This document shows, piece after piece, positions 5,076-35,376 of a stretch of 35,511 bases of DNA (position 1 is the stretch's first letter; each line of letters starts with the position of its first letter). This stretch comes from an uncultured Deferribacteres bacterium. Its GTDB lineage: Bacteria > Zhuqueibacterota > Zhuqueibacteria > Zhuqueibacterales > Geothermadaptataceae. The translations under genes were made by a program, and so were the position numbers. A model generated the notes under the pieces. It did no database searches and was not told where the DNA came from. It was given only the letters and a program-made list of their open reading frames with translations. Where the stretch lies: assembly GCA_964014485.1 (NCBI GenBank), contig CAXHAT010000074.1, positions 1 to 35,511 on the forward strand. The letters run 5' to 3'.

Positions 5076-5223
5076 GCGTTTTCTTTATTTTCCGTGTCGC
5101 TCGTTGTAGTATTCGATATAAGCATTTACGCGCTGCGGCGGCTTTTACCCGACTTCCAAACCGTGCCAGTGATCCGGTCGCCAATGGAAAAAACGTTCTG
5201 GAAAAGCCATTGCATCACTCGTC

Positions 5224-5529
5224 TTAATTCAACTGCTCCCAGATTTCTTTAACAGGCAGAATCTGTTTGCCATGACGTACAGTAAGAACTTCAATTTGGT
5301 TATTTTTCAAACGGTAGATGATTCTGTATTGGCCAAACAAAAGCTCGCGAACATCATCCCTTTCAAGCTCAGGAACCATTCTCCCGCTCTTCGGAAAATC
5401 TTCAATGATTTTGACCTGATCAAAAATTCTCGCGACCCATTTTCTGGCCGCACCGGGCTTATCTGCAGCAATGTAACGCGCAATTTCTTCAACTCGGTTC
5501 AACGCCAAGAGAGACCACTTGATTTTCAT
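5224..5529 (-). CDS. Type II toxin, RelE/ParE family
   Basis: 101 aa with FPKSGRMVPE...RELLFGQYRIIYR...VLTVRHG pattern; start overlaps the antitoxin stop (TAATG). Confidence 0.88.
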   Translation of the reverse strand: MKIKWSLLALNRVEEIARYIAADKPGAARKWVARIFDQVKIIEDFPKSGRMVPELERDDVRELLFGQYRIIYRLKNNQIEVLTVRHGKQILPVKEIWEQLN

Positions 5530-5813
5530 TAGCTGATTTGCAAGCTTTCAAGAACTCGCTTTTTCGCTTCATCATGGGCCAAGCCAAGTCCAGCGTCCAA
5601 TTCTTTTTCCGCTGTACGGACTTCTTGAAGAAGTTCGAGCTTATCCATTAGAGCTTCATATTCTTTAACGTCAAGAAGTACTGCAGCGCTTTTCCCGTGC
5701 TGTGTTATTACAAGAGGCCTTTTGGTATCGCGAACTTGCTGAATAAAAACAGTTGCGTTGGCGCGGAAGGCGGACAACGGTTGAATATCATCGTCAAGCA
5801 CTAGTCTTTTCAT
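5529..5813 (-). CDS. Type II antitoxin, Phd/YefM family
   Basis: DIQPLSAFRAN...RPLVITQHGKSAAVLLDVKEYE Phd/YefM signature; directly upstream of the toxin. Confidence 0.9.
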   Translation of the reverse strand: MKRLVLDDDIQPLSAFRANATVFIQQVRDTKRPLVITQHGKSAAVLLDVKEYEALMDKLELLQEVRTAEKELDAGLGLAHDEAKKRVLESLQIS

Positions 5814-5968
5814 AAGTCACCCTTTTAATCGTACCATCTATGCACCCAAAAAAGATACAATACCAAGGCTTTCATACAAGACCTTTTATTATTCCATTTG
5901 CAAAGGAATCAAATACAACCAGTGCGGCCTACCTGTAAGACTGCGTATGAACTGAAGCCTTCGAGTAC

Positions 5969-7402
5969 CTAAAAAGCTTTTCCGAGAAAATCCGCCGCTT
6001 TTAAAATGCCTTGCTCATCAAAAGGCCGTCCGATCAATTGCAGGCCGATGGGAAGGTTTTTGTTATCAAATCCGGCGGGGAAGGAAAGCGCGGGAAGGCC
6101 GGCCAAATTGACCGAAGCCGTAAAAATATCAGCGAGATACATTTCCAGCGGGTCGTCAATTTTTTCGCCTATTTTGAACGCCGTTGAGGGCGTGGTTGGA
6201 GTCAGCAGGTAATCACATTTCTCAAACGCGGCTTCAAAATCGCGCCGGATCAACGTTCGCGCTTGCATGGCTTTGCGGTAATACGCGTCATAATATCCGG
6301 AACTCAGGACGTACGTCCCTAACATGATGCGTCGTTTCACCTCGTCGCCAAAGCCCTCACTTCGGGAGTTGACGTACATTTCTTCGAGGCTCGCCGCATT
6401 TGAGCTGCGATAACCGTAGCGCGCACCATCGTACCTGGCAAGATTGGATGACGCTTCCGCCGTGCAAATAACGTAATATGCAGCGATGCAATACTCCGTC
6501 ATCGGTAAAGAAACGTCTATGAGTTCCGCCCCAGCCGCTGTCGCGGCTTTCTTGATTTTTTCAATGGCTTGTAAAATTTCAGGCTGGACGTCCTTAGTTA
6601 AATACTCTTGCGGCAAACCGATCTTTTTGCCTCGAATCGAGGCCCCAAGTTGTTGAGCCGTTTTCCCGTCAGGAGCATTCGAACTTGTGCTGTCGCGCAT
6701 ATCTTGGCCGGAAATTGTATCCAGAACAAGCGCCAGATCAGTAGCATTAGTTGCAAAAGGGCCGATTTGGTCGAGGGATGAGGCAAAGGCGGCGAGACCG
6801 TATCGTGAGACGCGACCGTAGGTTGGCTTCAGCCCGTACACGCCGCAAAAAGCGGCTGGTTGGCGAATCGAACCGCCAGTATCCGAACCCAAGGCAGCAT
6901 GACAAAAACCGGAGGCGACCGCCGCCGCCGAGCCGCCGGATGAACCGCCGGCAACCCGTGTCGAATCGTGCGGGTTTTCCACCACGCCAAATGCGGAATT
7001 CTCCGTTGAGCTTCCCATGGCAAATTCGTCCAGGTTGGTCTTGCCGATAATAATTGCGTCAGCGGCGCGCAGTTTTTCCACGACGTGCGCGTCGAAGGGA
7101 GAAGTGTAATTGGAGAGAATTTTTGAACCGCAGGAGAGCACGCGGTTTTTGACCGCAATATTGTCTTTTAAAGCAACAACGGCTCCCGCCAACGGCCCGG
7201 CGGAACCATTATTAATTTTTGTTTGAATACTTCTTGCGGATTCGAGGGCTTCTTCTTCAAATACTTGAAGAAAAGCGTTCTGATTGTTTTGGGCTTTAAT
7301 TTTCGCAAGGAAAGCTGCGACGACTTCTTGCAGTTTTATGTCACCTTTTCGAAGTCGTCGCTGTAAACTGGGGATGTCTGAGCGGGGATCATCCATGCTC
7401 AA
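5969..7402 (-). CDS. gatA: Asp-tRNA(Asn)/Glu-tRNA(Gln) amidotransferase subunit A
   Basis: Amidase signature GKTNLDEFAMGSSTENS, GGSSGGSAAAV, GSDTGGSIRQPA, EVKRRIMLGTYVLSSGYYDAYY; start may be ATG 7396. Confidence 0.96.
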   Translation of the reverse strand: MSMDDPRSDIPSLQRRLRKGDIKLQEVVAAFLAKIKAQNNQNAFLQVFEEEALESARSIQTKINNGSAGPLAGAVVALKDNIAVKNRVLSCGSKILSNYTSPFDAHVVEKLRAADAIIIGKTNLDEFAMGSSTENSAFGVVENPHDSTRVAGGSSGGSAAAVASGFCHAALGSDTGGSIRQPAAFCGVYGLKPTYGRVSRYGLAAFASSLDQIGPFATNATDLALVLDTISGQDMRDSTSSNAPDGKTAQQLGASIRGKKIGLPQEYLTKDVQPEILQAIEKIKKAATAAGAELIDVSLPMTEYCIAAYYVICTAEASSNLARYDGARYGYRSSNAASLEEMYVNSRSEGFGDEVKRRIMLGTYVLSSGYYDAYYRKAMQARTLIRRDFEAAFEKCDYLLTPTTPSTAFKIGEKIDDPLEMYLADIFTASVNLAGLPALSFPAGFDNKNLPIGLQLIGRPFDEQGILKAADFLGKAF

Positions 7403-7404
7403 TA

Positions 7405-7593
7405 TCAGGCTTGGTCTTTTTTCGTGGTCGTTGTCGAATCGTCAATCTTGGTGACTTCTTCAACTTCGTTTGCAGCAGATTTAAACTCTTTAATACCTTT
7501 TCCAAGCCCTTTGGCCAACTCCGGCAATTTCTTGGCGCCAAAGAGAAGAACGATAATGAAGAGAATGATGATCATTTCCGTTGTGCCGGGCAT
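7405..7593 (-). CDS. tatA: Twin-arginine translocase TatA/TatE subunit
   Basis: One TM helix, FG hinge, amphipathic [18 protein letters not shown]. Confidence 0.92.
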
Positions 7594-7623
7594 GATGCGC
7601 CTCCTTCAAATATGAATGATGAT

Positions 7624-7869
7624 TTATTTTAAATCTTTATCGTCAGAGCCGTGAAAATCGTAGGTGTTATTCTGCTTTTTGTAATCGATTTTCGGCTGGT
7701 CAAAATTATCTATGTCAAGCTCTTGCTTAACGTCTTCCGCTGCACGGCGAAGCTCGGACAAGCCTTTGCCCAATCCCCGCGCCAGCTCAGGAATTTTTTT
7801 AGGGCCGAAAAAAATAAGCACGACCAGCATGATGATCATCAACTCGGCCATGCCAATACCGCCGAACAT
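7624..7869 (-). CDS. Twin-arginine translocase TatA/TatB family subunit
   Basis: MFGGIGMAELMII...FFGPKKIPELARGLGKGLSELRRA; GGAG RBS upstream. Confidence 0.88.
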   Translation of the reverse strand: MFGGIGMAELMIIMLVVLIFFGPKKIPELARGLGKGLSELRRAAEDVKQELDIDNFDQPKIDYKKQNNTYDFHGSDDKDLK

Positions 7870-7982
7870 CTCGAATTCTCCTTAAGTCAATCTTGAAATC
7901 TGTTCTCAACGCCGCCGTTTCCGCGCCTGTGAAGATAAATAACTTACGGGAAACATCCATAAATATTTTTATCCCGCCCTCT

Positions 7983-8178
7983 CTACCTGACACTTTTTTG
8001 TAGACTGCATTTTTGAGTCGTCGAAAGGCCTCGTTTTGTCATTCTGTAGGAATCTTTGTTATCGCCCAGTCCAGCTCATGCCCAAAAGTTCAAGGCTCGC
8101 ATCAAAAAAGATGCTTACGGTATAACAATTCCGGCCTTTTTCGCCAGCTTTAGAAGCTTACCAAAAAGTGTCAGATAG
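7983..8178. repeat. MITE-like nested inverted-repeat element
   Basis: Imperfect 21-bp terminal inverted repeats (7983-8003 and 8158-8178) and inner inverted repeats (8036-8057 and 8107-8128, 17/22 match); no ORF. Confidence 0.6.
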
Positions 8179-8198
8179 TGAATCCCGGCGGCAAAAAC

Positions 8199-8465
8199 TC
8201 AGTACCACCGCAGCATATAAATCGCAACGAGAACTCCGATAAATCCAACGAGGTTTATCTTTAGCGTCAATCCAAGCGTGATTGAAAAAACGATCACGTT
8301 GAGCGTTGTCGGCCCAAAAGAAGGCTCCCAAAGCGGCTTGACAAAAAACTGTTTTACAACGCCCTCAGGCAAAACAAAAATAATCAGCTCGCCCAGCAAG
8401 CTTCCAACCATGGCGCCAATCAAAATAACCAGAACAATTTTTCCCAAAGAATATTTCGAACGCAA
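8199..8465 (-). CDS. Small membrane protein (DUF4321-like)
   Basis: 88 aa with hydrophobic N- and C-terminal helices; ILIGAMVGSLLGE...TLGLTLKINLVG pattern. Confidence 0.7.
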   Translation of the reverse strand: MRSKYSLGKIVLVILIGAMVGSLLGELIIFVLPEGVVKQFFVKPLWEPSFGPTTLNVIVFSITLGLTLKINLVGFIGVLVAIYMLRWY

Positions 8466-8518
8466 TCAGAACTCCTGCACGAATTTTTCTTTCAGCTTTG
8501 TTTTCATGGTAGAGTCCT

Positions 8519-9217
8519 TTAAGCGGCGAGGCGCGTTTTAATCAAGGAAGAAAAAATATGAATCCCGTCTGCTGAACCCAGACTACTTTCGCAGGCGCGC
8601 TCAGGGTGCGGCATCATGCCCAATACGTTTCCGGTTTTGTTGGTAATCCCTGCGATATTTCGAAGAGAGCCGTTCGGGTTCGCGTTTTTAGCGGTCTCGC
8701 CCTCGGCTGAGCTATAACGGAATAATACCTGATTGTTCGCTTCAAGCTCGTCAATTACGTCGTTTTCAGCGTAATAATTGCCCTCGCCGTGCGCGATCGG
8801 CATTTTCAGGACTTGCCCTTTTTGGCAGGCTCCGGTAAACGCCGAGTTCGTATGTTCGACACGGATATTGATCTGGCGACAGATAAAATCGAGGTTCTGA
8901 TTTCTCATCAATGAGCCGGGCAATAGACCGCTTTCGCACAAAACCTGAAATCCATTGCAAACGCCGACGACCGTGCCGCCCTTTTGGGCAAATCCGAGCA
9001 CTTCGCGCATGACCGGAGAAAAACGCGCGATGGCGCCGCCGCGCAGATAATCGCCGTAAGAAAATCCGCCCGGCAAAAAGACGGCGCTCAAATCCGAAAT
9101 ATCCGTTTCCTTATGCCAGACGAATCGCACATTCTGGCGCAACACATGCTTGAGCGCATGATAAAGATCATGATCACAATTCGACCCTGGAAAAACAACA
9201 ACGCCTAATTTATCCAT
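8519..9217 (-). CDS. purQ: Phosphoribosylformylglycinamidine synthase glutaminase subunit
   Basis: [27 protein letters not shown] (catalytic Cys), [15 protein letters not shown]. Confidence 0.97.
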
Positions 9218-9489: not shown

Positions 9490-10263
9490 TTATTCCTCAC
9501 CATTCTCTTCATCAGCATCTTGCGTTGCTCCACGATCAGTTTTTCGTCGCTTGGGCAATCCGCCTTCCCGTCCGACGCGATAAAGCGCTCGTCCGGCGGA
9601 GTAAACGATGTAAATAATGACCATCGGGAATATGGCGCTTTGCGGAAAAAACACAACGATAATCAGACTGATCAGAACGGCGGCGAGGTGCAAACTGTTC
9701 TTCCTGCCCGAACGCAAACTAAAGCGCGGCATCGCGTCGAATTCAATCGTGCTTACCATGAGAATGGAAGCGAGAAATGTCAGCGGCAGCATGAAAGACG
9801 ACAGACGGAGCTCGCTCCAGTAATAAAAATTGAAAATAATGAATGATGCGAGCAGAGCCGAAGCCGCAGGCGTCGGGAGCCCTTTAAAATTGACTTTCTC
9901 CGCCCCGGAGACTTGCGTGTTAAATCTGGCGAGTCTTATTGCGCCGAACATCAGAGGGAAAAAGCTGATAATTAAGCCGACCGGCGGCGACATGGTTTTG
10001 AGATAAACTTCGTAAATAAGAAAGGAGGGCGCTACGCCAAACGAAGTAATGTCGGCGAGAGAATCGAACTCGACGCCGAATTTGCTGGAACTTTTGGTCG
10101 CGCGAGCCACTTTCCCGTCAACAGCGTCGAAAACAGCGGCGATAATGATAATCCATGAGGCGGCGGGCAAATCGCCCTTGGCGCTGAGAATAATCGCGTA
10201 GAAGCCGAGAAAAAGGTTCATCACCGTAAGAAAGCCGGGAGCAAGCAGTCGTTTAGGAAACAT
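9490..10263 (-). CDS. pssA: CDP-diacylglycerol--serine O-phosphatidyltransferase
   Basis: CDP-alcohol phosphotransferase motif DAVDGKVAR...FGVEFDSLADITSFGVAP, RLARFN, FKGLPTP; adjacent to psd; start placed at ATG 10263 (alternative 10278). Confidence 0.9.
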   Translation of the reverse strand: MFPKRLLAPGFLTVMNLFLGFYAIILSAKGDLPAASWIIIIAAVFDAVDGKVARATKSSSKFGVEFDSLADITSFGVAPSFLIYEVYLKTMSPPVGLIISFFPLMFGAIRLARFNTQVSGAEKVNFKGLPTPAASALLASFIIFNFYYWSELRLSSFMLPLTFLASILMVSTIEFDAMPRFSLRSGRKNSLHLAAVLISLIIVVFFPQSAIFPMVIIYIVYSAGRALYRVGREGGLPKRRKTDRGATQDADEENGEE

Positions 10264-20661: not shown

Positions 20662-23034
20662 TTACTCGGAATCGATTAATCCGAGCAATTTGTCTCTCGC
20701 AGCTTTGTCGCGGATTGCACGTTCTCGATAATCCTGGGCTTGAGAATGCTGAGAATCGATTTCTAGAATTCGATCAAAAAGCGCGATGGCTCTTTCATAT
20801 CGCCCTTCGGTGTATTCAGTCACGCCCGTGTTGAAGAATTGTTCGACTTGAATCGTCAAGATTCGGTTACACTCAGCGATTCTTTGATGACATCGCGTTG
20901 ACTCCGGGGCGCGATTACAAATATCTCTGTAGTATTCCAGCGCAAGCAGATAATTTCCAGCAATAAACGCTCTATCGGCGTTTCTATATCTCGATTCGAC
21001 GTCCAGGTTATTGAGCGCGTCTTCTTTTCTCGAATGCACGTCTTTATAGCTTTTATCGTCGATCAAAATTGAGTCAAAATGGGCTATGGCCGCCGTCCAG
21101 TTTCCAGCATTAAATTGATTCAAACCGCGAACATAAATTGCATTAACAAAGGCAGCCTTCGCTCTTGCCACGCGTCTTAAAAGGTTACTGGCTAAATCTC
21201 GCCTCGGCGGATATTTTTTCAATTGCTCAAATCGTTGTTTAGCGCGTTCGAAATCGCTCCGTTCAAGCAACCTTCTCCCCGAGTCCACCAAGCTCTGCAC
21301 TTCCCTCGCGAGTTTCCGTTCGATAGCCTTTCGTTTTTGCTTCGCCTGATACAAATCAGGGTCGGCTTCCAGCGCGCCTACCAGCATATTGTCTGCGTCA
21401 ATATACTCCGCTCTCCGGATGTGATCGTCAGCCCACTGCAGCATTTTTTTCGTTCGTTGAGCTTGGTCTTCGGCTTCTTTGCTCGCTTTTTCAAAATACT
21501 CTTTTGCGGCAAGATTATCAGTGTCATAGTTAACCGCAAGTTCAAAATTTTCAGCGGCCTGCCGATATTTTTTCTGTTGAAAAAAGCCAACGCCTCGCTC
21601 GTAATGCTTGCGCGATTCCTCTCGGTACCTCTCATTGAGTTTCAAGCGCACCGTATTGCCGGCAACATGCGACTTGTCGAGTTCCAAAACATAGGAAATC
21701 GCCGTTTCGGCGTCCTTCAATGAATCTCTCGACAAAGAATATTCCGCCGTAGCCAAGAGATCTTCTATATTCTGATCGACTTTCAATTGAATCGCCGTGA
21801 GACGTCTGGGAGCTTCGGGATTTTCACGATCCAACGAAATAATTTTTTGATAATTCAAAGCGGCGCCGATGTACCAGCCCTTTTCCTCATATCCGGCGGC
21901 TTCAACAAAAAGATTGTCAATCTTCTGCGTCGTCAGATTCAGTCTCTCATTTATTCTGGCCATCAGGGCAATTGAAAGCGAGTCGTTGGGCACAAAGCTC
22001 AGCGCATTCTGCAATGACTTCAAAGCGCGTCTCGGCATTTTATTGCGATAAAGACGCACGCCTTTCGCACGAGCGTCGCGGGCGCGCATCGAAGGCGACT
22101 TTCCCAATCTTACCGCAAAATCAGCCAAAATCGTCTGTTTTTCAAATGAGTAGGTCACGTCGATGCTGTAGTGGCGTGAAAGAAAACTCGCTCCCAATGC
22201 GGTGCGGTCAAAATCAAAATCTTCGATTCCCCCCACCACGTTCAAAAAGCCGCGAATCGGAACGGCAACGCCAAATCTTGGCAAAAACATTTCATCGTCA
22301 AAACGAAAAGAAGAAAAGAGCGTCGTTCCGCTGTTGAGCAATCTATAAAATGCTGAAACGTCGCCGTACGCTCTCAGTTCGCTGGGCCCAATCGGAATAT
22401 CCTGGACGGTCAGCGCCAGCGCAAACTTTTGCGGCAAAATAACATTGTTAAACCATTTAGATTCATTGATGCGCAAGGCGTTCAGCTCTGAGCTTTTTGA
22501 AAACGGAAACGCATACAACCCGAAAGAGAGATTGCTGTCAAAAGCCGATTCTCCTGAAAATCTGTTAAAATTAACCGCTCCTCCAGCATAAAAATAGCGC
22601 GTAACTTCCCGGCCAAATCCAAATATGACGCGACGTAAATAATGATTTTCTGAATTCAGCGAGTCTGGGCTTAAACGAGGCGAAGGGAATTCGGTTAAAG
22701 CAAACGCCAAGCTGCCGACATTGGGAAAGAAATAGGAAAGCCCCAGAAAACTGAGGCTAAAAGGATCGCTGGCAGAGGCGCGGAATTGAGCGTCCTTGAT
22801 TAAACCGAGACTGGCGGGATTCCAAAAAGCCGCGGCAGGATCGTGAATGGCGGCGGTCAGCGCGTTGCCCAGTCCGGCGGCGCGCGCACTCGGATTGGCG
22901 AACTCAATCAAAGACTGCGGCGTTAGTTTCGCTGGAGCCAACAAAACCAGCGCCAAAAACAGGAGTTTATACTTCTGAATATGCTGTTTTATTTCCAGTT
23001 GACGGGTATTAAGCGACTCAACAATAGCGGTCAT
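20662..23034 (-). CDS. PorV/PorQ-like outer-membrane barrel fused to TPR repeats
   Basis: SARAAGLGNA...DPAAAFWNPASLG N-terminal motif, beta-rich first ~310 aa, then TPR repeats (HYERGVGFFQQKKYRQAAENF, FFNTGVTEYTEGRYERAI). Confidence 0.65.
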   Translation of the reverse strand: MTAIVESLNTRQLEIKQHIQKYKLLFLALVLLAPAKLTPQSLIEFANPSARAAGLGNALTAAIHDPAAAFWNPASLGLIKDAQFRASASDPFSLSFLGLSYFFPNVGSLAFALTEFPSPRLSPDSLNSENHYLRRVIFGFGREVTRYFYAGGAVNFNRFSGESAFDSNLSFGLYAFPFSKSSELNALRINESKWFNNVILPQKFALALTVQDIPIGPSELRAYGDVSAFYRLLNSGTTLFSSFRFDDEMFLPRFGVAVPIRGFLNVVGGIEDFDFDRTALGASFLSRHYSIDVTYSFEKQTILADFAVRLGKSPSMRARDARAKGVRLYRNKMPRRALKSLQNALSFVPNDSLSIALMARINERLNLTTQKIDNLFVEAAGYEEKGWYIGAALNYQKIISLDRENPEAPRRLTAIQLKVDQNIEDLLATAEYSLSRDSLKDAETAISYVLELDKSHVAGNTVRLKLNERYREESRKHYERGVGFFQQKKYRQAAENFELAVNYDTDNLAAKEYFEKASKEAEDQAQRTKKMLQWADDHIRRAEYIDADNMLVGALEADPDLYQAKQKRKAIERKLAREVQSLVDSGRRLLERSDFERAKQRFEQLKKYPPRRDLASNLLRRVARAKAAFVNAIYVRGLNQFNAGNWTAAIAHFDSILIDDKSYKDVHSRKEDALNNLDVESRYRNADRAFIAGNYLLALEYYRDICNRAPESTRCHQRIAECNRILTIQVEQFFNTGVTEYTEGRYERAIALFDRILEIDSQHSQAQDYRERAIRDKAARDKLLGLIDSE

Positions 23035-28533: not shown

Positions 28534-28589
28534 CCCGCTGCGCGGGAAAAATAACCAAATGACTCAAATGATCAAATAGCCAATGATTG
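28534..28589 (-). promoter_or_regulatory. DGR IMH-like tract and hairpin downstream of VR2
   Basis: 25 nt (28565-28589) identical to 32286-32310 and absent from the TR; hairpin CCCGC-GCA-GCGGG at 28534-28546. Confidence 0.75.
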
Positions 28590-30023
28590 TCCGGAACGAA
28601 CAGCGCGGACGAAGACGCTGAAGTCGACAAGATCGCTGCCGCAATAACCGAGGTCGAAACCGACAACCCAGACGTCCGACGCGGCGCGCTTGTCCGCAGT
28701 CCAAATCCACGATTGCGCTTGTTCGAACAGTGGATTGATGTATAAGCCGTGTTCATTCGGCTCCGGTTCCATCAATGACATGGCTTCTTCTAGCGTGGGC
28801 AAGCGCCAGTCGTCGAATCCGGCGAATTCGGCCTGATTCAGGCTGTCGATGTATGCCTGCGCCTGAACAAAAGTCATCCTTTCAGTCGATCCGCCTTGCT
28901 GCCAGGTCAGATTGACGGCTTCGTCAACAATAAGCTGCGCACCCTCGCGCTCGATGAACTTGAATTTGTTCTCGACTCCGGCGCCGCGCGGGTTCCACAA
29001 TCTGTCATAAAAGCCTTTGTTTCGCAGCATCTCCGTAAAAGCGGAAACTTCGGAAATTGTTGTCGGTTCGGATCGCAGCAAAGGTACGCTTGCGTGCGGC
29101 GTTTTATCCTCGGCTTTTCCAAAATCCGGCATGATCGCCACGGCAAGATAAAAAATCGTTACCAGCATCATCGCCATGAAACCGAGCGTGCTCACCGGCT
29201 TTTCGTCAACGTTAAAACGTTTGCGAATAAACCTGAAGGTAAAATTGAGCTTGAGCAATAACTTGACCGCGAGACCAGACACGGCGTAGAGCCAAATCCA
29301 GACCGAGGTAAAAAAAGCCGTGTAAAAGGAAATCGAGAAAAACGGAAACGGCTCGGAGCGGAAGACGTCCACCCAAATGAGAGATTGGCTGGTGAGCGGC
29401 AGCACTTCTTCGAAGTAGACGGAGATCAACGACACGAACGATTGATCCGGCACGAAAAGCATGTCCCAAATCGATCCGTACAAGCCGGTCTTGATAAAAA
29501 TCGGTATGATCACAATCGCGATTAAGCCGGTTATGACGGCGTCGGTGAGAAGAAGAAGCACATGCTTGAAAAAAGACTGCGTGGAGGACATCCACTTGAT
29601 GACGAGACGGGTTTCAAGGAGGGAGAGGTAGTCCGGGATCAGGTTGAGCAGAAGGAGCACAAGCAGCGCGTTGAAAAGATAGCGCGCTTCAAATTCAAAA
29701 GCGCTCAATTCACTCCAACGTACAGCGGCCCAGATGAGAAACATGAGCGTAAAGGAAATTGCCGAGGCCAGACAAGAGCGCCAGAAACATTTCCAGGCGA
29801 GGTGTTTTTTGCCGAACACGGCGTCGAAGGTCTCAGCAAAAGTGCGCGGCCATCCGCCGAGGCTCTCGGGCGTTTTCAGATTTTTGAGCCACCGCGTCAC
29901 AGACTGCTTTGTCTCGGCGTTAAGCACGTCCTCGGCTTTTTCAAAAATACGGTGTATGCCGTAAGAAACGCCCAGCCAGGAGCCGAGGGCGATCAAAAAG
30001 GAAGAATTCAGGAAACCGTCCAT
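28572..30023 (-). CDS. DGR target 2: multi-pass membrane protein with C-terminal DUF1566/Lcl (CLec-fold) domain
   Basis: About 6 hydrophobic segments in the first 300 aa; C-terminal LTWQQGGS...AGFDDWRLPTLEE...WIWTAD...VRAVRSG; 3' end carries VR2. Confidence 0.88.
   Translation of the reverse strand: MDGFLNSSFLIALGSWLGVSYGIHRIFEKAEDVLNAETKQSVTRWLKNLKTPESLGGWPRTFAETFDAVFGKKHLAWKCFWRSCLASAISFTLMFLIWAAVRWSELSAFEFEARYLFNALLVLLLLNLIPDYLSLLETRLVIKWMSSTQSFFKHVLLLLTDAVITGLIAIVIIPIFIKTGLYGSIWDMLFVPDQSFVSLISVYFEEVLPLTSQSLIWVDVFRSEPFPFFSISFYTAFFTSVWIWLYAVSGLAVKLLLKLNFTFRFIRKRFNVDEKPVSTLGFMAMMLVTIFYLAVAIMPDFGKAEDKTPHASVPLLRSEPTTISEVSAFTEMLRNKGFYDRLWNPRGAGVENKFKFIEREGAQLIVDEAVNLTWQQGGSTERMTFVQAQAYIDSLNQAEFAGFDDWRLPTLEEAMSLMEPEPNEHGLYINPLFEQAQSWIWTADKRAASDVWVVGFDLGYCGSDLVDFSVFVRAVRSGQSLAI
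28590..28682 (-). repeat. DGR variable repeat VR2
   Basis: 93-nt ungapped match to the TR (31528-31620) with 18 mismatches, all at TR adenines on the coding strand. Confidence 0.96.
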
Positions 30024-30032: not shown

Positions 30033-31568
30033 TTATGGCAAGTCGTCCCAGGGATATTCTACGATCAAATACAGCACCCGTTCTTTTGTTTTGTACCGCT
30101 CGCGTCCGGTTTGGCGGACAATGACTAATGGAACGCGCGATTTCCGCAAACGCTCGGCGATTTTGTCTAAACAACGGGCGGGAAAGCCACAGCCGTATTG
30201 ATAACCGCGCCATTTGGCGTGTAACACAAGCCCCGCCGTTTGCGCCAAAATTTTTGCATCCCGGCCAAACGCTTCATAATAACACCCGATTTCAATAAGC
30301 CGGAGATGTTGGGGAAATTCCTTGCGCAGCCAGGTGATTTGCTGTTTCAATGTTTGTTTTTTGCGCAAGCCCCGGTCGCGGCGAACGAGCCTGCGCGAAG
30401 ATAATCGGTAGAATTTTTCCAGAAAATTGAATTCGCCCCAGAGTTTTTCGAGTAGTTTATGCGTTTGGGCATGTTTGAAATGGCCGAGGTAAGAATTCAT
30501 CGCGGCAAGAAGCGTTGCGAGCGTTTTTTCATGAAAATGATAAACGATGTAATGGCCGCGATTCGCTGCAAGTTTGTCTCGCACTTTTCTCAAACGCGCT
30601 GTTACATGTCCAACTACTCTGCGACGCACCAATAGATAGTGTGACCGAACTATAAACCCTGCAAAATCAACACCGCCTGAGACAGGCGCAATGCGAGAAG
30701 CTTGCTCTCGTAAACTCAACTGGAGGCGCTCTGCAAGGAATGCCGCGATCTTTTCTTTCCAGTCTCGCAATCTCGAAGGATCGAGATCAAGAAGAATGAA
30801 ATCATCAACGTAGCGGAGATAATAGCGGCATTTGAGCTCGTGTTTGACAAATTGATCCAGCGCGTCCAGGTAGACGTTGGCGAAGAATTGACTGGTGAGA
30901 TTACCGATGGGCAGGCCGCATCCCGGTTTTGCATGGAAAAGCGACTTATGCGGCGGCAATTTGAAACGCAGATTTTCACGATCCATCATGCAATAGTCCG
31001 CTGTTGGATCGTGAAAAACGACGATGCGCAGCAACCAGAGCAACTCCGGCGCTAAGGAACGCTGCGTCAGGCGCTCGAACAGCCGCCGCCGGTCGACGGA
31101 CATGAAAAAATTGAGAATGTCGAGCTTAAGATAGAAGGCGCGGCGGGAGCCGTTGCGGGTAATTTTGCGCAAGAAGCCTTGCAATGCAAATGCGGCGGCG
31201 TGCGTTCCCTTGCCGGGGCGGCAGGCGTAGGAGTGGTGAACAAATCTTTTCTCCCAGACCGGTGAGAGTGCATTATAAATCAGGTGGTGGACGATGCGAT
31301 CCCGAAACGCAGCCGCGAAGATTTCCCGGCACTTGGGCTTTTCGGTATAAAAACAGATCGAAGTTGACGGCTTGTAACGACGTTCTCGCAGTTCGTTGAC
31401 GAGCGTGAGCAGGTTCGCTTCCGCATCGATCTCAAACGCCAGCGCGCTTACCGAATTGCGCTTGGTTCTCCGGCAAGCCAGCCAGGCGCGGTACATCCGC
31501 GGGAAAGTAAACAGCGACGGACGATTATCCGGAACGAACAGCGCGGACGTAGTTGTTGTTGTCGACAT
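30033..31568 (-). CDS. DGR reverse transcriptase with C-terminal MutS-domain-I-like fusion
   Basis: FRDRIVHH, YLKLDI..FF.S, GLPIGNLTSQFFAN (DGR-type SQ motif), YLRYVDDF (YVDD at 30801-30812); start uncertain (31697, 31568 or 31496). Confidence 0.95.
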   Translation of the reverse strand: MSTTTTTSALFVPDNRPSLFTFPRMYRAWLACRRTKRNSVSALAFEIDAEANLLTLVNELRERRYKPSTSICFYTEKPKCREIFAAAFRDRIVHHLIYNALSPVWEKRFVHHSYACRPGKGTHAAAFALQGFLRKITRNGSRRAFYLKLDILNFFMSVDRRRLFERLTQRSLAPELLWLLRIVVFHDPTADYCMMDRENLRFKLPPHKSLFHAKPGCGLPIGNLTSQFFANVYLDALDQFVKHELKCRYYLRYVDDFILLDLDPSRLRDWKEKIAAFLAERLQLSLREQASRIAPVSGGVDFAGFIVRSHYLLVRRRVVGHVTARLRKVRDKLAANRGHYIVYHFHEKTLATLLAAMNSYLGHFKHAQTHKLLEKLWGEFNFLEKFYRLSSRRLVRRDRGLRKKQTLKQQITWLRKEFPQHLRLIEIGCYYEAFGRDAKILAQTAGLVLHAKWRGYQYGCGFPARCLDKIAERLRKSRVPLVIVRQTGRERYKTKERVLYLIVEYPWDDLP

Positions 31569-31620
31569 GATTGTTGTTGCAATTACCGTTGTTGAAATTG
31601 ACAACCCAGACGTCCGACGT
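31528..31620 (-). ncRNA. DGR template repeat (TR)
   Basis: AAC/AAT-rich, reads SDVWVVNFNNGNCNNNHVDNNNYVRAVRSG-stop in the VR frame; lies between avd and the RT core; differs from both VRs only at adenines. Confidence 0.96.
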
Positions 31621-31660
31621 TCTTGTCCCGATACTTGTTGGAGCTGTTCCAGCACGTTTG

Positions 31661-31687
31661 CTGGATTCCCGCCTGCGCGAGAATGAC
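31661..31687. repeat. Single REP-like arm inside the avd-TR spacer
   Basis: Minus strand GTCATTCTCGCGCAGGCGGGAATCCAG, same family as the arms at 14260, 25875 and 35443. Confidence 0.75.
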
Positions 31688-31811
31688 ATGGAAGCAACGA
31701 TTTGGAACGGCTCCGCTCGACTGCACCACTCGCGCTTTACGGCAACAGGCGCGTCGGATCAAAGATACCCTGTTTGCAATTGCAACAGGGTGACCGGGAT
31801 GCACAATCATC

Positions 31812-32213
31812 TTATCGGCGCGCTCTCGTTTCCGGCTGAGCGCCGGAAAAAGATTCTGGCCGGTCGCGTTTTTTCATCGTTTTTAGCCAGCCTTCGTTCT
31901 GTTTGCACAGCTCCGCCACCTGATTGATGCTGTGTTGAAAGGAATTGAAGTTGGCAAACGCTTTCAAATCTTTGCACAGGCGGATCGTTATTTTCAAATC
32001 TTCCAGCCTGTCCCGGCAAAGCAGCAGACCGGGCGCCTTGTCTTCGGCGTCATTGGCTTGCCGGATTAGGCGCAAAATTTCACGCGAGATTTGGCGCAAT
32101 TCCGCGCCAACGGTGTATTTGTGATAACGGCTGAAATTGCGCACGATTTTTTCAAAGTAAAGGGTCAGATCATAGGCTTGTTTGTAGATGGGCAAATGTT
32201 CGTACCTTGCCAT
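31812..32213 (-). CDS. avd: DGR accessory variability determinant (four-helix bundle)
   Basis: Basic 133-aa helical protein MARYEHLPIYKQAYDL...FSRYHKYTVGAELR...LCKQNEGWLK; immediately upstream of TR-RT; GGAGAG RBS before ATG 32213. Confidence 0.88.
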   Translation of the reverse strand: MARYEHLPIYKQAYDLTLYFEKIVRNFSRYHKYTVGAELRQISREILRLIRQANDAEDKAPGLLLCRDRLEDLKITIRLCKDLKAFANFNSFQHSINQVAELCKQNEGWLKTMKKRDRPESFSGAQPETRARR

Positions 32214-32252
32214 TGCTCTCTCCGGTTTTGCGCCATATTTCAAATTTTCAAA

Positions 32253-32310
32253 CCCGCTGCGCGGGAATTAAAGAATCAAATAACCCAAATGATCAAATAG
32301 CCAATGATTG
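32253..32310 (-). promoter_or_regulatory. DGR IMH-like tract and hairpin downstream of VR1
   Basis: 25 nt (32286-32310) identical to the tract after VR2; hairpin CCCGC-GCA-GCGGG at 32253-32265. Confidence 0.75.
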
Positions 32311-35300
32311 TCCGGAACGAACAGCGCGGACGTAGTAGTCGCTGACGACACGAACGTAGCTGCAAACACCGAAGTCGAAAAAGACAACCCAGACGACCGA
32401 CGCGTCGCGCTTGTCCGCAGTCCAGATCCAGCTCTGCTTTTGGTCGAATGCCGGATCGATGTACAGATCGCCGTTCTTCTTTTCCGGCTCCATTAGTGTC
32501 ATCGCTTCTTCTAGTGTCGGGAGACGCCAGTCATCAAAACCGGCGACTTTGTCCCGGTTCAGCTTTTCCACATACTCCTCGGCGTTCGTATAATTCATCG
32601 TATCCGATGATCCGCCCTGCTGCCAGGTCAGCCCGCTCGCTAAATCCGACGCCAATTTTTCGCCGTTCGCTTCGAGAGGCATGAGCGCGGTGCTCACACC
32701 TCGCCCTTTCTTGTTCCAGTCCGAGTCGAATAGCCCGACCTCCGCCAACATCGTTTTAACCTGATCAACTGAAAGCGTTTGCGGCTCACTGCGCAGTTTT
32801 GGCGGCTCAACCCCCAACGCCGCCAGCACTTTCGGCAGGCCGTCTGGATTCTTCAACCCGGTACAGCGGTTCAGCTTGAGTTGTTTTAATTTCGGCGTTT
32901 TGGGCAAACTTGCGAGGTCTTTTAACCCGGTAAAGCCGCTCAGGTTCAAGCGTTCGAGCGCAGGCAGTTCGGGCGGCAGGAAGCTTACATCTTTCAAATT
33001 GGCGCATTCACTGAAATCCAACGATGCGAGAGCGCCGAACTGTCGGGCAAAATACGGGAAGACTTCGCGGTGAAAATCCGAATCATCGAGAGAGTCCTTG
33101 AGAATTTCGTCAAAAACCGACGTGCGGGAATCACCGGCGTAGCTTGCCAGAACCGTGCGCGCCGCTTCATCGCCAATCAATTTGAGAGCGTGTACGCAGG
33201 CCGCAGCTTCAGGAATCGTGAGCTGTTCCCGCCAACCCAAATGCGTCGCAGCCAGCGTTCCCGCCGCCGCAATCGCCTTGGCGTCTTCCTTGTTTTTCGG
33301 CGGAATCAGCGTCGTCAAACTTTCGTCCACCGTACCCCGTAGCTCCCGGTCAACAACCACTGCCGTTTCCAGACAGGCGACGGCGAGCAAGTGAAAGTAG
33401 TGTCGCCTCTCGGCGTCCCGGTCTCCAGCTTCTACAAGATTACGAATGATTTTGTCGGCGGCTTTGGGCGCGGCGTGCCCGGCGGCGAGAATCACGACTT
33501 CGCGCCACTGGTCGTCATGCGCATTCTGATGCAAAAAACCCAGGTCGCCTTCGTCAATAATCGCCTTCGCGGCCAAAAACTCCTGAAACGTGCGGTGGGC
33601 GAAATCCATCTCTCCTTCCACTGGCGATTGCAACAGCCCGCTGCGCTCCACCAAAAAAGCGCGAATGTTCTTCGCTTCGTCTTGAATTCCGAGATTCGGG
33701 AGTTGCTTTTCAAAACGCTCATCGGCCTCTTCAAATGAAATCCGCGACCAGCCGTTGCGCATCATCCAAAGCGCCAAATCTTCCAGCAAGGCCCGTTTTC
33801 GGGTGTAGTTGAGTTCAGTGGGCGCGTGCGTCGTGTCCACGCCCACGCTCTGTTCCCTGCCCCGGCGCTCCAGAATCATCTCGCAGCAGGCTTCATAAAG
33901 ACGCAGGCGCTCTGACGGAACATCCTTTTTTCGCTCGCGATGCAAGGCGCAAACGGCGGAGCAGAGCAGCGGATTGGCGGTCAGATTGCGCAATGCCAAT
34001 TTGGTTCTGATTTCGCTTTTCAAGCTTGCTTCCAGATCATCAAGTTCGGCCTTTTCGTCGTCGCGGAACAACTCCTTCTTCACCGCGCGATGCCAGTGCT
34101 CGATGAATCGGGTAATTTGCGTCAAGCCCATCGATTCAAAGGTGAATTCATTGAATCCTTCGCGGGCAAGACGGCCTTCTTCCATGGCGCTGGGTCGCGT
34201 CGTCACCACGAATTTTGTCTTTTGAAATTTCTTATTGCCGACAAGCTCTCTGAGCCATTCATAAACGCGCTCTCTTTGGTCGGGCGGCGTTTCATCCACG
34301 CCATCGATCAGAATGATCGCGCGTCCGGCGGCAAGCAATTCGCGCACCCAGCCTTTCGGCGTCTCTTCAGCGATAGTAGGTAGCAAATGTTCCACAAATT
34401 CCTGAGGCGCGGGCAAGTCGCGGTCGACGAATTTGCGCAAGTAAATGATGAAAGGCACTCTGTCGTTCAACGCGGCAAGCTCGCCCTGAAAGCGGTGCCC
34501 AGCGCACTGCACGGCGACCCATTTCACAAAAGTGGTTTTACCGCTGCCCGCCAATCCGCGCACTACTAAGCGGTCGCCGTAGTTCAAAACGCCGTCCGCG
34601 GCAACGACGAGATTTTCATCGGCTTCTTTTCTTGCGCCGCTTGACATGGAGAGACTAATGTACGCCACCGTCAAGCTGTGACGGCGGCTCCCCTGGCGCG
34701 TGACATCCAGGCCGACGAGCTTGATCTCGTCCAACGTTTCCACCAAGGTCTTACGGTAGTCTTCCTCAAACTGTGCGGCGGCGACTTCAGGATTAACCGC
34801 CTGGCTGCTTTCGCGAATTTTTCGCAGTTCATTGAGAACGCCGTCAACCTTGTGGAGCAGTCGATCTTCGCGCTTCAGCACTTCGGCGAACATATTCTCA
34901 TGAAAACTCGGCAGGCGCGAGGCGATCCCGACAACGTAATGGGCGCATTCCTTGAGCACGCGGTCGCAGAACGATTGCTCGGCTTCGGAAAAAGCGCGCA
35001 TTTTGTCGGCGCTTTCCTGTTGCAGCAAACGGTAAAGCTTGATTGGATCGAGATTGATTTCGGCGAGTTTCGCGGCGTCGATTTTGAGTTGATTCAAGAT
35101 ACCGGCGGCGGTTTCGGCGAGCAGCTTTCTCGTGTCGTCGTCCAGCGCTTGCTGCCGGAACACATGCTCAAGGTTTTTCGCCACTTTTATTGCGACGGCT
35201 TCAAACTGGCTGCGCCCCTGCCGCGCCGCCATGTCGCTGGAAACACGAGATTTCAGCAGATCAATAATTTCTCCGCCGAGTTCTTGTGGTAAACCAGGAT

Positions 35301-35376
35301 CGGGAAGCCAGAATTTCAGGATGGTTTTGGCGACCGCCGAGCCGAGGGTTGTGAAAAGAATGTCTAAAAGAGCCAT
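32293..35376 (-). CDS. DGR target 1: NLR-like protein (helical N-terminus, NACHT NTPase, LRR, DUF1566/Lcl CLec domain)
   Basis: Walker A GLAGSGKTT (34531-34557), Walker B IILIDGVDE, VVTTRP, NPLL, FAHRTFQEFLAA, WREV; about 3 LRRs (LASLDFSEC, LERLNLSGF, LKQLKLNRC); WRLPT domain ending in VR1. Confidence 0.92.
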   Translation of the reverse strand: MALLDILFTTLGSAVAKTILKFWLPDPGLPQELGGEIIDLLKSRVSSDMAARQGRSQFEAVAIKVAKNLEHVFRQQALDDDTRKLLAETAAGILNQLKIDAAKLAEINLDPIKLYRLLQQESADKMRAFSEAEQSFCDRVLKECAHYVVGIASRLPSFHENMFAEVLKREDRLLHKVDGVLNELRKIRESSQAVNPEVAAAQFEEDYRKTLVETLDEIKLVGLDVTRQGSRRHSLTVAYISLSMSSGARKEADENLVVAADGVLNYGDRLVVRGLAGSGKTTFVKWVAVQCAGHRFQGELAALNDRVPFIIYLRKFVDRDLPAPQEFVEHLLPTIAEETPKGWVRELLAAGRAIILIDGVDETPPDQRERVYEWLRELVGNKKFQKTKFVVTTRPSAMEEGRLAREGFNEFTFESMGLTQITRFIEHWHRAVKKELFRDDEKAELDDLEASLKSEIRTKLALRNLTANPLLCSAVCALHRERKKDVPSERLRLYEACCEMILERRGREQSVGVDTTHAPTELNYTRKRALLEDLALWMMRNGWSRISFEEADERFEKQLPNLGIQDEAKNIRAFLVERSGLLQSPVEGEMDFAHRTFQEFLAAKAIIDEGDLGFLHQNAHDDQWREVVILAAGHAAPKAADKIIRNLVEAGDRDAERRHYFHLLAVACLETAVVVDRELRGTVDESLTTLIPPKNKEDAKAIAAAGTLAATHLGWREQLTIPEAAACVHALKLIGDEAARTVLASYAGDSRTSVFDEILKDSLDDSDFHREVFPYFARQFGALASLDFSECANLKDVSFLPPELPALERLNLSGFTGLKDLASLPKTPKLKQLKLNRCTGLKNPDGLPKVLAALGVEPPKLRSEPQTLSVDQVKTMLAEVGLFDSDWNKKGRGVSTALMPLEANGEKLASDLASGLTWQQGGSSDTMNYTNAEEYVEKLNRDKVAGFDDWRLPTLEEAMTLMEPEKKNGDLYIDPAFDQKQSWIWTADKRDASVVWVVFFDFGVCSYVRVVSDYYVRAVRSGQSLAI
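32311..32403 (-). repeat. DGR variable repeat VR1
   Basis: 93-nt ungapped match to the TR with 18 mismatches, all at TR adenines on the coding strand. Confidence 0.96.

Follow-up and report, generated by a model that had tools for sequence, protein, structure and literature searches.

The window analysed here, a stretch of 35,511 nucleotides from an uncultured marine bacterium of KSB1-like affiliation (genome of 8.4 Mb in 465 contigs), carries on one strand, and all within 7 kb, a target gene that ends in a first variable region (VR1), an avd gene, a template repeat (TR), a DGR reverse transcriptase (RT) gene and a second target gene bearing VR2, in that order (Table 1). Elsewhere, the contig carries gatA/gatB, purB/purC, psd and htrA together with genes for TPR proteins, an adenylate cyclase, MazG and an M28 peptidase; the adenylate cyclase/HAMP gene lies a few kb from the DGR locus. 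Linkage to a defence island, raised in the initial annotation, was not borne out: the contig neighbours of the first target gene are housekeeping genes. A PADLOC v2.0.0 search returned zero matches for the NACHT protein, for target 2 or for a STAND target encoded elsewhere in the genome.

Table 1. Coordinates of the DGR locus, its two targets and their domains in the 35,511-nt window
Feature	Position	Strand	Basis or detail
Target gene 1 (P0001), 1027-aa NNH1-NACHT-helical-LRR-Lcl_C protein	32293..35376	-	ORF, Pfam, fold model
NNH1 domain, residues 10-181	34834..35349	-	Pfam PF22733 E 2e-31; helices 2-215 in model
NACHT, residues 269-431, Walker A GLAGSGKTT, Walker B IILIDGVDE	34084..34572	-	Pfam PF05729 E 5.2e-22
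Helical and winged-helix region, residues 439-782, containing FAHRTFQEFLAA	33031..34062	-	Model secondary structure; invariant columns
About 3 leucine-rich repeats, residues 785-845	32842..33024	-	Strands in both models
C-type-lectin fold, Lcl_C/DUF1566, residues ~897-1022	32311..32688	-	Pfam PF07603; C-terminal model
VR1, 97 nt, residues 992-1024	32306..32402	-	Repeat family D2 vs TR; 14 variable codons at 994-1015
Post-VR1 cis region: four 8-9-nt units ending TTTG(A/G)-like, then GC-rich hairpin CCCGCGCAGCGGG (32253-32265)	32253..32305	-	
avd, 143-aa ORF	31812..32243	-	Pfam bAvd E 3.9e-13; likely start ATG 32213
TR, 97 nt, 27 adenines, ten AAY codons in VR frame	31523..31619	-	Repeat comparison
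DGR RT, 487 aa from ATG 31496	30033..31496	-	Pfam RVT_1; open frame reaches up to 31697
MutS_I-like domain, RT C-terminus	30090-30347	-	Pfam MutS_I E 6.7e-9
Target gene 2, 483-aa membrane protein, C-terminal Lcl_C	28572..30023	-	ORF; Pfam Lcl_C E 4.9e-18
VR2, within target gene 2	28585-28681	-	Repeat vs TR

The product of the first target gene contains every motif that the initial annotation had quoted (GLAGSGKTT, IILIDGVDE, TTRP, NPLL, FAHRTFQEFLAA and the tail VVFFDFGVCSYVRVVSDYYVRAVR), and the domain anatomy proposed there, an NLR-like body with a lectin tip, was upheld by profile searches and fold models. The NACHT module scores 78.9 bits against PF05729, for which the cut-off is 26.7 bits, with the identical span recovered in a separate search of the genome, and G277, G279, K280, D358, D361, E362, R394, P469, F592 and H594 show no variation across 67 relatives, F592 and H594 being the invariant positions of FAHRTFQEFLAA. 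A comparison of the NNH1 head (residues 1-215) with a protein atlas returned only NNH-family clusters, at scores of no more than 0.89, and a PDB sequence search returned nothing at E <= 0.01. The N-terminal helix belongs to the conserved NNH1 domain, and a Kyte-Doolittle scan found zero transmembrane segments besides the hydrophobic VR itself. The full-length model (pLDDT 79.5) finds its best structural matches by Foldseek in animal NLRs, with NOD2 (4.4e-14) followed by NLRC4 and NLRP3 (E 4e-14 to 1e-13 overall), over alignments of 780-880 columns at a sequence identity of 12-16%. With these proteins it shares the succession of NACHT, helical domains and LRRs, whereas its head is NNH1 rather than a CARD or PYD, and only about three LRRs precede a DGR-written lectin domain.

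The claim of about three LRRs is sustained by strands at 785-787, 809-811 and 832-834, spaced 23-24 residues apart in two independent models (pLDDT 81-89 in the C-terminal one), and by over-threshold LRR_4 matches recorded in 5 of the 6 closest relatives; in the protein itself the Pfam LRR_4 match at 805-838 reaches 24.5 bits, under the 27-bit cut-off. By a crude motif count the array is short, at 2-3 hits compared with a median of 5 in 60 non-lectin relatives. Beyond it, the proposed C-terminal DUF1566/Lcl domain is established by a PF07603 match at 909-1020 (E 1.1e-19, 71.3 bits vs a cut-off of 34.9 bits) and by a CLec fold in the C-terminal model (pLDDT 91.1). VIA-align matched this lectin tip to the C-terminal domain of Legionella Lcl (8q4e_A, Z 12.2, 117 aligned), to 8oks_A (Z 10.1) and to the DGR protein TvpA (2y3c, Z 9.1, 125 aligned), and the variable codons sit in or around strands 994-999 and 1004-1009 of the modelled fold.

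A join between a NACHT-LRR body and a lectin tip raises the question of a chimera, in which a NACHT-LRR gene and a separate DGR target would have been fused during assembly. The genome is in 465 contigs and has VR/TR-related repeats elsewhere, and no single contig among the matches listed from three sequencing runs bridges 32700-32870, all of which would suit such an artefact. Against this, six proteins from other, independently assembled genomes (P0002-P0007) are collinear with target 1 over 83-100% of the query, two orthologous loci (L009 and L032) each encode the architecture as a single open frame, and the exact target 1 protein is recorded on 3 contigs, the longest of 54 kb. An assembly chimera at the NACHT-LRR/Lcl_C junction is therefore exceedingly improbable, and was rejected on the collinearity of the six other-assembly records.

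IGxxxSQ is a hallmark of DGR RTs, and the RT translation contains IGNLTSQ as well as an intact YVDD; it matches Pfam RVT_1 at E 1.6e-14 and the PADLOC RT profile at E 4.8e-38, and its ATG lies 26 nt downstream of the end of the TR. Its C-terminus carries the MutS_I-like domain, and PF01624 occurs in 52 of the 120 RT relatives among the matches listed; the named relatives are KSB1, Syntrophorhabdaceae and Nevskiales MAGs. The avd product scores 50.3 bits against Pfam bAvd, above the 40-bit cut-off, and 47.4 bits (E 1.9e-12) against the NCBIfam model DivGenRetAVD, under its 80-bit cut-off. Judging from a paralogous avd on contig C135, translation likely starts at ATG 32213.

The TR matches four VRs genome-wide, two in the window and two remote (on contigs C30 and C135), and the differences fall almost entirely at adenines. 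For VR1, which the initial annotation had correctly placed in the last ~30 residues of target 1, 17 of 18 differences are at TR adenines, a concentration with P = 4.8e-9 given 27 A in 97 nt; the corresponding counts are 17/18 for VR2, 11/12 for the C135 VR and 15/16 for the C30 VR. Pooled over the four VRs, 60 of 64 differences are at A, vs 27 A in 97 positions (P about 8e-29), and the remaining four are one T>C common to all four VRs at the 3' boundary (TR GGATAATC, VRs GGACAATC). Outside this shared site there are zero non-adenine changes over 97 nt in any of the VRs, whereas the coding sequences upstream of them are only 18-82% identical between paralogues (50-nt windows); with no non-adenine change in the VRs and such divergence in the coding sequences before them, the writing of the VRs is recent compared with the age of the paralogues. 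Each of the 24 mutable adenines occupies codon position 1 or 2. Within the clade of seven proteins described below, the scaffold residues W996, F1000, G1003, C1005, V1016, R1017, V1019 and R1020 are invariant and the intervening positions vary, an alternation that would suit variable residues exposed to solvent on one face of the fold; the current VR1 is strongly hydrophobic (V, F, Y).

Features in cis also distinguish the VRs from the TR. The IMH-like end is a GC-rich constant stretch with a single TR/VR difference. Hairpin CCCGCGCAGCGGG follows VR1, VR2 and the C30 VR with the same layout of units, and the C135 VR is followed by a longer inverted repeat, GGGGGTGGA...TCCACCCCC; the sequence after the TR has neither the layout of units and hairpin nor a GC-rich inverted repeat. 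One TR serves four chassis, namely a cytoplasmic NLR, a polytopic membrane protein (target 2, with about 5 hydrophobic segments by hydropathy scan), a TIR protein and a membrane-anchored STAND protein, the last two bearing the remote VRs. Modules found in the co-targets comprise TIR_2, a weak nSTAND-type P-loop and transmembrane segments.

The combination of NACHT, LRR and DUF1566 had been called unusual, and the relatives agree: NNH1-NACHT-LRR-Lcl_C occurs in 6 of 119 other proteins among the matches listed, giving with target 1 a clade of seven, and in 0 of the 83 nearest Lcl_C representatives. Fusion partners among those 83 domains are TIR_2 (13), caspase (11), nSTAND1 (3), protein kinase (3) and KAP NTPase (1). 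One relative of the same family, P0020, has an FGE-sulfatase domain instead of Lcl_C and branches elsewhere. DGR linkage is not a fixed trait of the seven-protein clade, since orthologues at the three loci with readable surroundings lie without an adjacent DGR and no cognate TR was found in genome G001. Specifically, L009 has no direct repeat of at least 50 nt within 11 kb of the orthologue and no cognate TR in its genome; L032 and L033 show no avd or RT in the 0.7-1.6 kb readable downstream (only about 0.7 kb for L033); and in genome G001 no cognate TR was found for the orthologous VR, which departs from the nearest TR at 33 positions, with no more than 16 of these changes at A.

Ongoing variation was sought in contigs from three runs (X1-X3) of one 'marine metagenome' study, at depths of 2-8 and in a form of data that drops rare variants. 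No adenine-site variants of VR1 or VR2 appeared in these contigs, several bins being uncovered in X2 and X3; X1 and X3 match VR2 exactly, and one 302-nt contig of X2 (depth 4.85) does so for VR1. Single contigs account for each of the T>C substitutions seen at 31578, 31583 and 31584 and for the changes at 32431-32442, which most likely represent paralogous VR or lectin copies aligned on the TR or its flank. Likewise, the 90% protein clusters of targets 1 and 2 and the TIR target held no VR variant, the only extra member being an identical 201-aa fragment. The lack of variants in these contigs and clusters, and the drift of the orthologous VR in G001 away from any TR, would be expected if the DGR wrote VR1 formerly and acts on it no longer, leaving the specificity of the NACHT protein fixed. 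However, the RT, avd, TR, IMH-like end and hairpin all look intact, the four VRs lack non-adenine changes beyond the shared boundary base, a pattern that speaks against a long period of neutral drift after the last homing, and the absence of variation was read from few low-depth contigs. We consider a frozen VR distinctly unlikely.

STAND/NACHT-lectin proteins diversified by DGRs were reportedly described by Kaur in 2020. In the available parts of later sources, NACHT/STAND proteins with a C-terminal lectin-fold domain are associated with a DGR RT and with an accessory four-helix protein, encoded either adjacently or at another genomic site (Kaur 2021, PMC8195603), bacterial NACHT proteins of an 'FGS antigen-receptor type' are DGR-linked (Kibby 2022, bioRxiv 10.1101/2022.07.19.500537), and both sources put forward STAND NTPase-FGS systems explicitly as counterparts of adaptive immune receptors. 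DGR-diversified STAND NTPase-lectin 'putative antigen sensors' are likewise described in the accessible text of Doré 2024 (PMC10907252), among them Thiohalocapsa PB-PSB1 DGR 3 and 6 and those of clade 5D. The novelty claimed in the initial annotation was accordingly overrated by reference to Kaur 2021, Kibby 2022 and Doré 2024: the hypothesis of a DGR-diversified, NLR-like antigen receptor already stands in the published literature, and the locus is a clean, complete example of a published kind of putative bacterial antigen sensor. The systems of Doré 2024, as far as that text describes them, resemble the present one in their cellular avd-TR-RT DGR, commonly with a pair of neighbouring targets that each bear one C-terminal CLec and a central NACHT/nSTAND NTPase, in their further TIR or transmembrane targets, and in their predicted cytoplasmic and membrane localisations. 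They differ in that here the NNH1-NACHT chassis retains a residual array of 3 LRRs ahead of an Lcl_C-type lectin, and the host is KSB1-like; LRR, DUF1566 and Lcl each have zero occurrences in the available text of Doré 2024. In the corresponding portions of Kaur 2021 and Kibby 2022, the FGS (PF03781) lectin and repeat arrays (LRR, TPR) are treated as alternative sensors, whereas target 1 combines a short LRR array with a PF07603-family lectin. What is particular here is the Lcl_C tip on a shortened LRR array, the use of one TR for four chassis and the KSB1-like host.

Two further groups bear comparison, again from the accessible sections of one source (Wu et al. 2018, PMC5758913). In its category d, the Legionella-type DGRs, DUF1566-class targets are surface or lipoprotein, adhesion-type proteins. 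These systems, together with the Lcl C-terminal domain (PDB 8q4e), share with ours the Pfam family and fold of the VR-bearing domain and a VR placed at the very end of the protein chain; the Legionella-type DGRs also have Avd, and a MutS-related accessory function is found within the group. Here, by contrast, the lectin domain sits on a cytoplasmic NLR-like ATPase, and MutS_I is fused to the RT rather than encoded by a separate MSL gene. The prototype, the DGR of Bordetella phage BPP-1 (mtd-avd-TR-brt), agrees with ours in the adenine specificity of its TR-to-VR differences, in a TR rich in AAY, in having the VR at the C-terminus of a CLec fold, in the IMH vs IMH* boundary difference and in a GC-rich inverted repeat after the VR only. 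It is, however, a phage element with a single target, whereas the present element is cellular with four targets, has an RT with a MutS_I tail and places four short TTTG(A/G)-type units between VR end and hairpin.

Taken together, the locus is probably a complete, apparently intact chromosomal DGR with a cytoplasmic NLR-like STAND protein as its first target, one diversified at its lectin tip and most likely recognising invaders or non-self. In the proposed mechanism, the RT (with Avd) would copy TR RNA into adenine-mutagenised cDNA, which would replace the VR and so re-draw the surface with which the lectin binds its ligand, giving about 15^10 x 4^4 (roughly 1e14) possible peptides. The lectin tip would act as the sensor, a role presumably filled by a long LRR array in the parent family; bound ligand may then free the NACHT module for oligomerisation, and the output would come from the NNH1 head. 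Such a protein would most likely recognise invaders or other non-self, in line with what has been suggested for STAND-lectin DGR targets in the literature. The initial annotation had proposed an intracellular immune-type receptor rewritten by retrohoming. The anatomy it described, a cytoplasmic NLR-like STAND protein with a VR-bearing C-type-lectin tip beside its own avd-TR-RT, stands on profiles, repeats and models; the immune-receptor role, ligand-triggered oligomerisation and ongoing rewriting of specificity we infer, and the anti-invader interpretation is plausible.

The same anatomy and the same DGR writing could instead serve kin or self recognition (allorecognition) or the tuning of signalling, with the lectin tip binding a ligand of the cell or of a neighbouring cell. 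Doré 2024 (PMC10907252), in its available text, offers kin recognition as an alternative for such targets, and the housekeeping neighbours, the nearby adenylate cyclase/HAMP gene, the lack of a PADLOC match and the very hydrophobic present VR1 (V, F, Y) are compatible with it. Yet the co-targets bear TIR and STAND modules, the nearest Lcl_C domains are mostly joined to death- or defence-type effectors (caspase, TIR, nSTAND1-CHAT, SduA_C), and Kibby et al. included NNH1-NACHT proteins when they screened bacterial NACHT proteins for defence against phage (bioRxiv 10.1101/2022.07.19.500537). A kin or self role thus seems rather unlikely, and recognition of invaders or other non-self is the reading we retain.

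As to how such a system arose, we offer a tentative scenario in which a small NNH1-NACHT-LRR lineage shortened its germline-encoded LRR array to some three repeats and added a DGR-written lectin at the end, turning an innate sensor into a somatically diversifiable one. One TR feeding four chassis might then constitute a receptor set with a shared reprogrammable scaffold and differing outputs and compartments, and the MutS_I tail of the RT, along with the four TTTG(A/G)-type units behind every VR as a lineage-specific signal marking target sites, may let one element serve dispersed targets.

The locus places a system of this kind in a poorly known KSB1-like phylum and points to a sensor swap, from LRR to lectin, inside a single NLR family. 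It is a compact and complete test case for the hypothesis of DGR-diversified NLRs: its four targets differ in output, and its NLR chassis is a relative of bacterial NACHT proteins of the LRR type. If these proteins work as proposed, nothing else in bacteria would come closer to an antigen receptor, since they would be switches of the NLR type with a binding site rewritten by targeted hypermutation.

In the source assembly (8.40 Mb, 465 contigs, 97% complete, 0.8% contamination), of which the window makes up one entire contig (C74), ORFs, repeats and Pfam domains read on the minus strand of the window place the genes in the order target gene 1, the accessory gene avd, the template repeat (TR), the reverse transcriptase (RT) and target gene 2. 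Target gene 1 encodes P0001, a 1027-aa protein whose translation contains every motif string quoted in the initial annotation, and the central observation of that annotation, a NACHT-LRR-Lcl_C gene with a variable region (VR) beside a diversity-generating retroelement (DGR), is confirmed by ORFs, Pfam, repeats and structural models alike.

Features of the window, of other contigs (C-numbers) of its genome, and of loci of relatives (L-numbers)
Feature	Position	Strand	Basis or description
Target gene 1 ORF, 1027 aa	35376..32293	minus	Pfam NNH1 + NACHT + Lcl_C; LRR_4 sub-threshold
avd ORF, 143 aa	32243..31812	minus	Pfam bAvd
TR	31523-31619	minus	97-nt repeat match
RT ORF	open to 31697, likely ATG 31496, end 30033	minus	RT motifs; Pfam RVT_1 + C-terminal MutS_I
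Target gene 2 ORF, 483 aa	30023..28572	minus	Pfam Lcl_C
VR1	32306-32402	minus	97-nt repeat
VR2	28585-28681	minus	97-nt repeat
Remote VR, TIR target	C135:21518-21614		97-nt repeat, genome search
Remote VR, STAND-like target	C30:44988-45084		97-nt repeat, genome search
Second DGR, RT	C135:6651-7991		56% identical to the window's RT
Second DGR, TR	C135 about 8114-8240		own TR
Second DGR, VRs	C135:5253-5363; 8833-8942		two VRs
Post-VR TTTG units, window	32266-32305; 28545-28584		motif reading
Post-VR TTTG units, same genome	C30:45093-45114; C135:21489-21510, 8801-8822, 5221-5242		motif scan
Post-VR TTTG units, same genome	C5:6795-6816; C34:26206-26227		motif scan
Post-VR TTTG units, relatives	L009 about 10200-10230; L033 about 2990-3030; L021 about 370-425, 3830-3880		motif reading

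The 97-nt repeat is present in three copies in the window and two elsewhere in the genome, and the four VRs depart from the TR almost exclusively at adenines, which occupy 27 of the 97 nt of its coding strand. Adenines account for 17 of the 18 differences in VR1 (P = 4.8e-9), 17 of 18 in VR2, 11 of 12 in the VR on C135 and 15 of 16 in that on C30, or 60 of 64 when pooled (P about 8e-29). What remains is one non-adenine change, a T>C that all four VRs share 8 bases before the repeat end; apart from this shared boundary base, the 97-nt comparison found no non-adenine change. Read in the frame of the VRs, the TR comprises ten AAY codons together with GAC, GAC, CAT and TAC; all 24 mutable adenines lie at codon position 1 or 2, and the three adenines of the constant 3' part are unchanged. 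Because the VRs carry no such non-adenine changes while the coding sequences just upstream of them are only 18-82% identical among the four target genes (50-nt windows), the writing of the VRs is recent when set against the age of the paralogues. Inverted repeats rich in GC lie 3' of the VRs and not of the TR. This set of repeats and RT has the features by which Wu et al. 2018 (PMC5758913), in their summary, define a DGR. Contigs of three marine metagenome runs and protein clusters held no direct evidence of present-day diversification, and these data are too thin to weigh against it.

Structural models support both the NLR-like body of P0001 and its lectin tip. For residues 780-1027, the model rests on an alignment of 38 rows (the query segment, the C-terminal segments of six Lcl_C-bearing relatives, P0002-P0007, three paralogues of this genome and 28 short representatives of 150) and has a mean pLDDT of 91.1. 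Its three strands, spaced 23-24 residues apart, are the LRRs; a helical linker joins them to an alpha/beta domain of compact shape. Foldseek ranked the Legionella Lcl C-terminal domain first for this model (E 1.1e-4), followed by C-type-lectin-like domains, and VIA-align gave Z 12.2 against 8q4e_A (117 aligned, rmsd 4.0), Z 10.1 against Bdellovibrio Bd2740 and Z 9.1 against the solved DGR variable protein TvpA (2y3c; 125 aligned). The variable codons (994, 999, 1001, 1002, 1004, 1006-1009, 1011-1015) fall in and around the last two lectin strands. The full-length model (pLDDT 79.5), built on 67 of the 120 best-listed relatives, is all-helical to about residue 215 and continues with a P-loop domain at 243-435, helical domains at 439-782 and then the LRRs; its lectin part is of low confidence because few alignment rows contain the lectin. 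The best PDB matches of this model are NOD2, NLRC4 and NLRP3 (E 4e-14 to 1e-13), all 67 rows of its alignment agree at the Walker A and Walker B residues and at other conserved positions, and a hydropathy scan found no membrane segment besides the hydrophobic VR itself. Of the earlier reading of P0001 as an immune-type receptor, the anatomy is borne out by these results, while the function is something that we only infer.

Among the relatives listed, the Lcl_C tip is restricted to a small branch of the protein family. Among the best 120 of 431 relatives at E <= 1e-10, only P0002-P0007 (48-50% identity; two of the six named candidate division KSB1) combine Lcl_C with NNH1 and NACHT, and most others are NNH1-NACHT proteins with longer LRR arrays and without a lectin. 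When the seven Lcl_C proteins are aligned, scaffold positions within roughly the last 25 residues are conserved and the residues between them hypervariable. FastTree, run on residues 1-780 of 67 rows with the lectin part excluded and midpoint-rooted for drawing only, unites the seven in a single clade (support 100) in which P0001 is the deepest branch, and a crude count finds 2-3 LRR motifs in these proteins, whereas the 60 remaining ones have a median of 5 (range 0-15). We read this pattern as a lectin domain added to a shortened LRR array within a single LRR-type bacterial NLR family. A further NNH1-NACHT-LRR family member, P0020 (1254 aa), ends in an FGE-sulfatase domain, an FGS-type lectin, and branches outside the Lcl_C clade, from which it is separated by branches of support 81-94. 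Capture of a lectin-fold sensor thus seems to have happened twice in the family, the FGE capture likely being independent.

The initial annotation had considered the NACHT+LRR+DUF1566 combination beside its own cassette unusual, and among the contexts visible this adjacency to the cassette is found only in the window. L009, the only full-length match among 12 loci in the genome collection, has its orthologue flanked by genes for AnmK, AAA_14/DUF4143 and Schlafen-AlbA_2 and, at the opposite end, by one for a sugar nucleotidyltransferase, with no avd or RT nearby; L032, from another relative, has the same neighbours and likewise no adjacent DGR. Both KSB1-type contigs (L009 1-17198, L032 1-7438) keep, in this order, AnmK, a Schlafen-AlbA_2/HATPase_c_4 gene, the NACHT gene and NTP_transf_4. 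An AbiEii-like fragment is also present in L032, and in L009 a pair of TIR_2 genes follows 5-6 kb downstream. The genome of L009 does contain a DGR homologous to that of the window, with an RT-MutS_I gene and a VR on either side; adenines account for 14 of 14 differences in one of these VRs and 16 of 17 in the other. The VR of the L009 NACHT gene differs from the TR of that DGR at 33 positions, 16 of them adenines, and no closer TR was found in that genome.

Within the genome of the window, Lcl_C is matched 13 times and NACHT, over its cut-off, 6 times. The two remote targets are a 312-aa TIR_2 + Lcl_C protein on C135 and, on C30, an open frame of 626 aa that begins with a hydrophobic stretch, continues with a P-loop region weakly matching nSTAND1 and nSTAND3, and carries Lcl_C. 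A single TR serves four chassis here, a particular of this locus. C135 also carries a second DGR of the same type (5253-9189), about 12 kb from the TIR-Lcl_C gene (21518-22452); the VR of that gene corresponds to the TR in the window rather than to the one nearby on C135.

The constant end of each VR (GACAATC) is directly followed by some four units of 8-9 nt, whose ends resemble TTTG(A/G), and these by the GC-rich inverted repeat. A scan of both strands of the 8.4 Mb for triple TTTG[AG] with 3-4-nt spacers returned 24 occurrences, eight of them within 80 nt after Lcl_C gene ends (8 of 13 such ends). The units are absent after TRs, recur in relatives from one other genome and one metagenome, and may represent a lineage-specific target-site element, of which the passages of the DGR literature at hand contain no description. 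The same scan caught tandem arrays of 8-nt units (GAGCCTTT-like) at or near contig ends (C279:6-50, C332:5575-5643, C55:16627-16647), which are unrelated to Lcl_C genes. A long palindrome, TCATACCCGCGGAGGCGGGTATCCAG ... CTGGATACCCGCCTCCGCGGGTATGA, occupies the contig end (35445-35511), immediately upstream of target gene 1; a half-site related to it, CGCGCAGGCGGGAATCCAG, is found upstream of the TR (31655-31690). Metagenome contig depth at these sites is 30-47 versus 2-8, and many contigs break or diverge from the window there, which suggests that the palindrome is a dispersed REP-like repeat fragmenting the assembly.

Beyond this genome, the Lcl_C module is very common: with the last 178 residues as query, 11,652 cluster representatives matched at a threshold of E <= 1e-3, and 584 still did so at <= 1e-30. 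Partner domains in 83 of the 150 best representatives (<=1800 aa, in rank order to a residue limit) were TIR_2 (13), caspase (11), protein kinase (3), nSTAND1 (3, two with CHAT) and, once each, KAP NTPase, trypsin, SduA_C, T5orf172 and FGE; the NACHT family PF05729 occurred in none of the 83. The C-terminal tail of the RT (30090-30347, minus strand) resembles MutS domain I (Pfam E 6.7e-9) and contains GCYYEAF, presumably at the place of the Phe-x-Glu mismatch-binding motif of MutS. Because PF01624 is present in 52 of the 120 best RT relatives and nearly all others are of equal length with 95-100% query coverage, the tail appears to mark a large RT lineage; a weak MutS_I tail is noted in only three RTs in the relevant passage of Wu et al. 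2018 (PMC5758913), where the DUF1566 target category is also defined.

Proteins of this general kind have been described. Kaur et al. 2020 (PMC7159879) connected DGRs with FGS domains, which have a lectin fold, in conflict systems. Kaur et al. 2021 (PMC8195603) found STAND NTPase-FGS proteins to be widespread, the DGR RT and the four-helix accessory protein being encoded alongside or at another site, and saw in them potential counterparts of adaptive immune receptors. Kibby et al. (bioRxiv 10.1101/2022.07.19.500537) listed 'FGS antigen-receptor type' bacterial NACHT proteins and named NNH1; they also hyperactivated bacterial NLRs through a histidine position to which H594 of P0001 is presumably equivalent. 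Doré et al. 2024 (PMC10907252) described DGR clade 5D, in which two targets join CLec to NACHT or nSTAND1 and further variants have TIR or membrane modules, their function being stated there as untested. An NNH1-NACHT-LRR-Lcl_C DGR target was not found in the available passages of the DGR literature on NACHT, DUF1566 or MutS; the SI figures of Doré et al. may show similar proteins. The P0001 locus belongs to this published kind, and its particulars are modest: the lectin is of the Lcl_C type and sits on an LRR-NLR chassis that is truncated, four chassis share one TR, and the host is KSB1-like.
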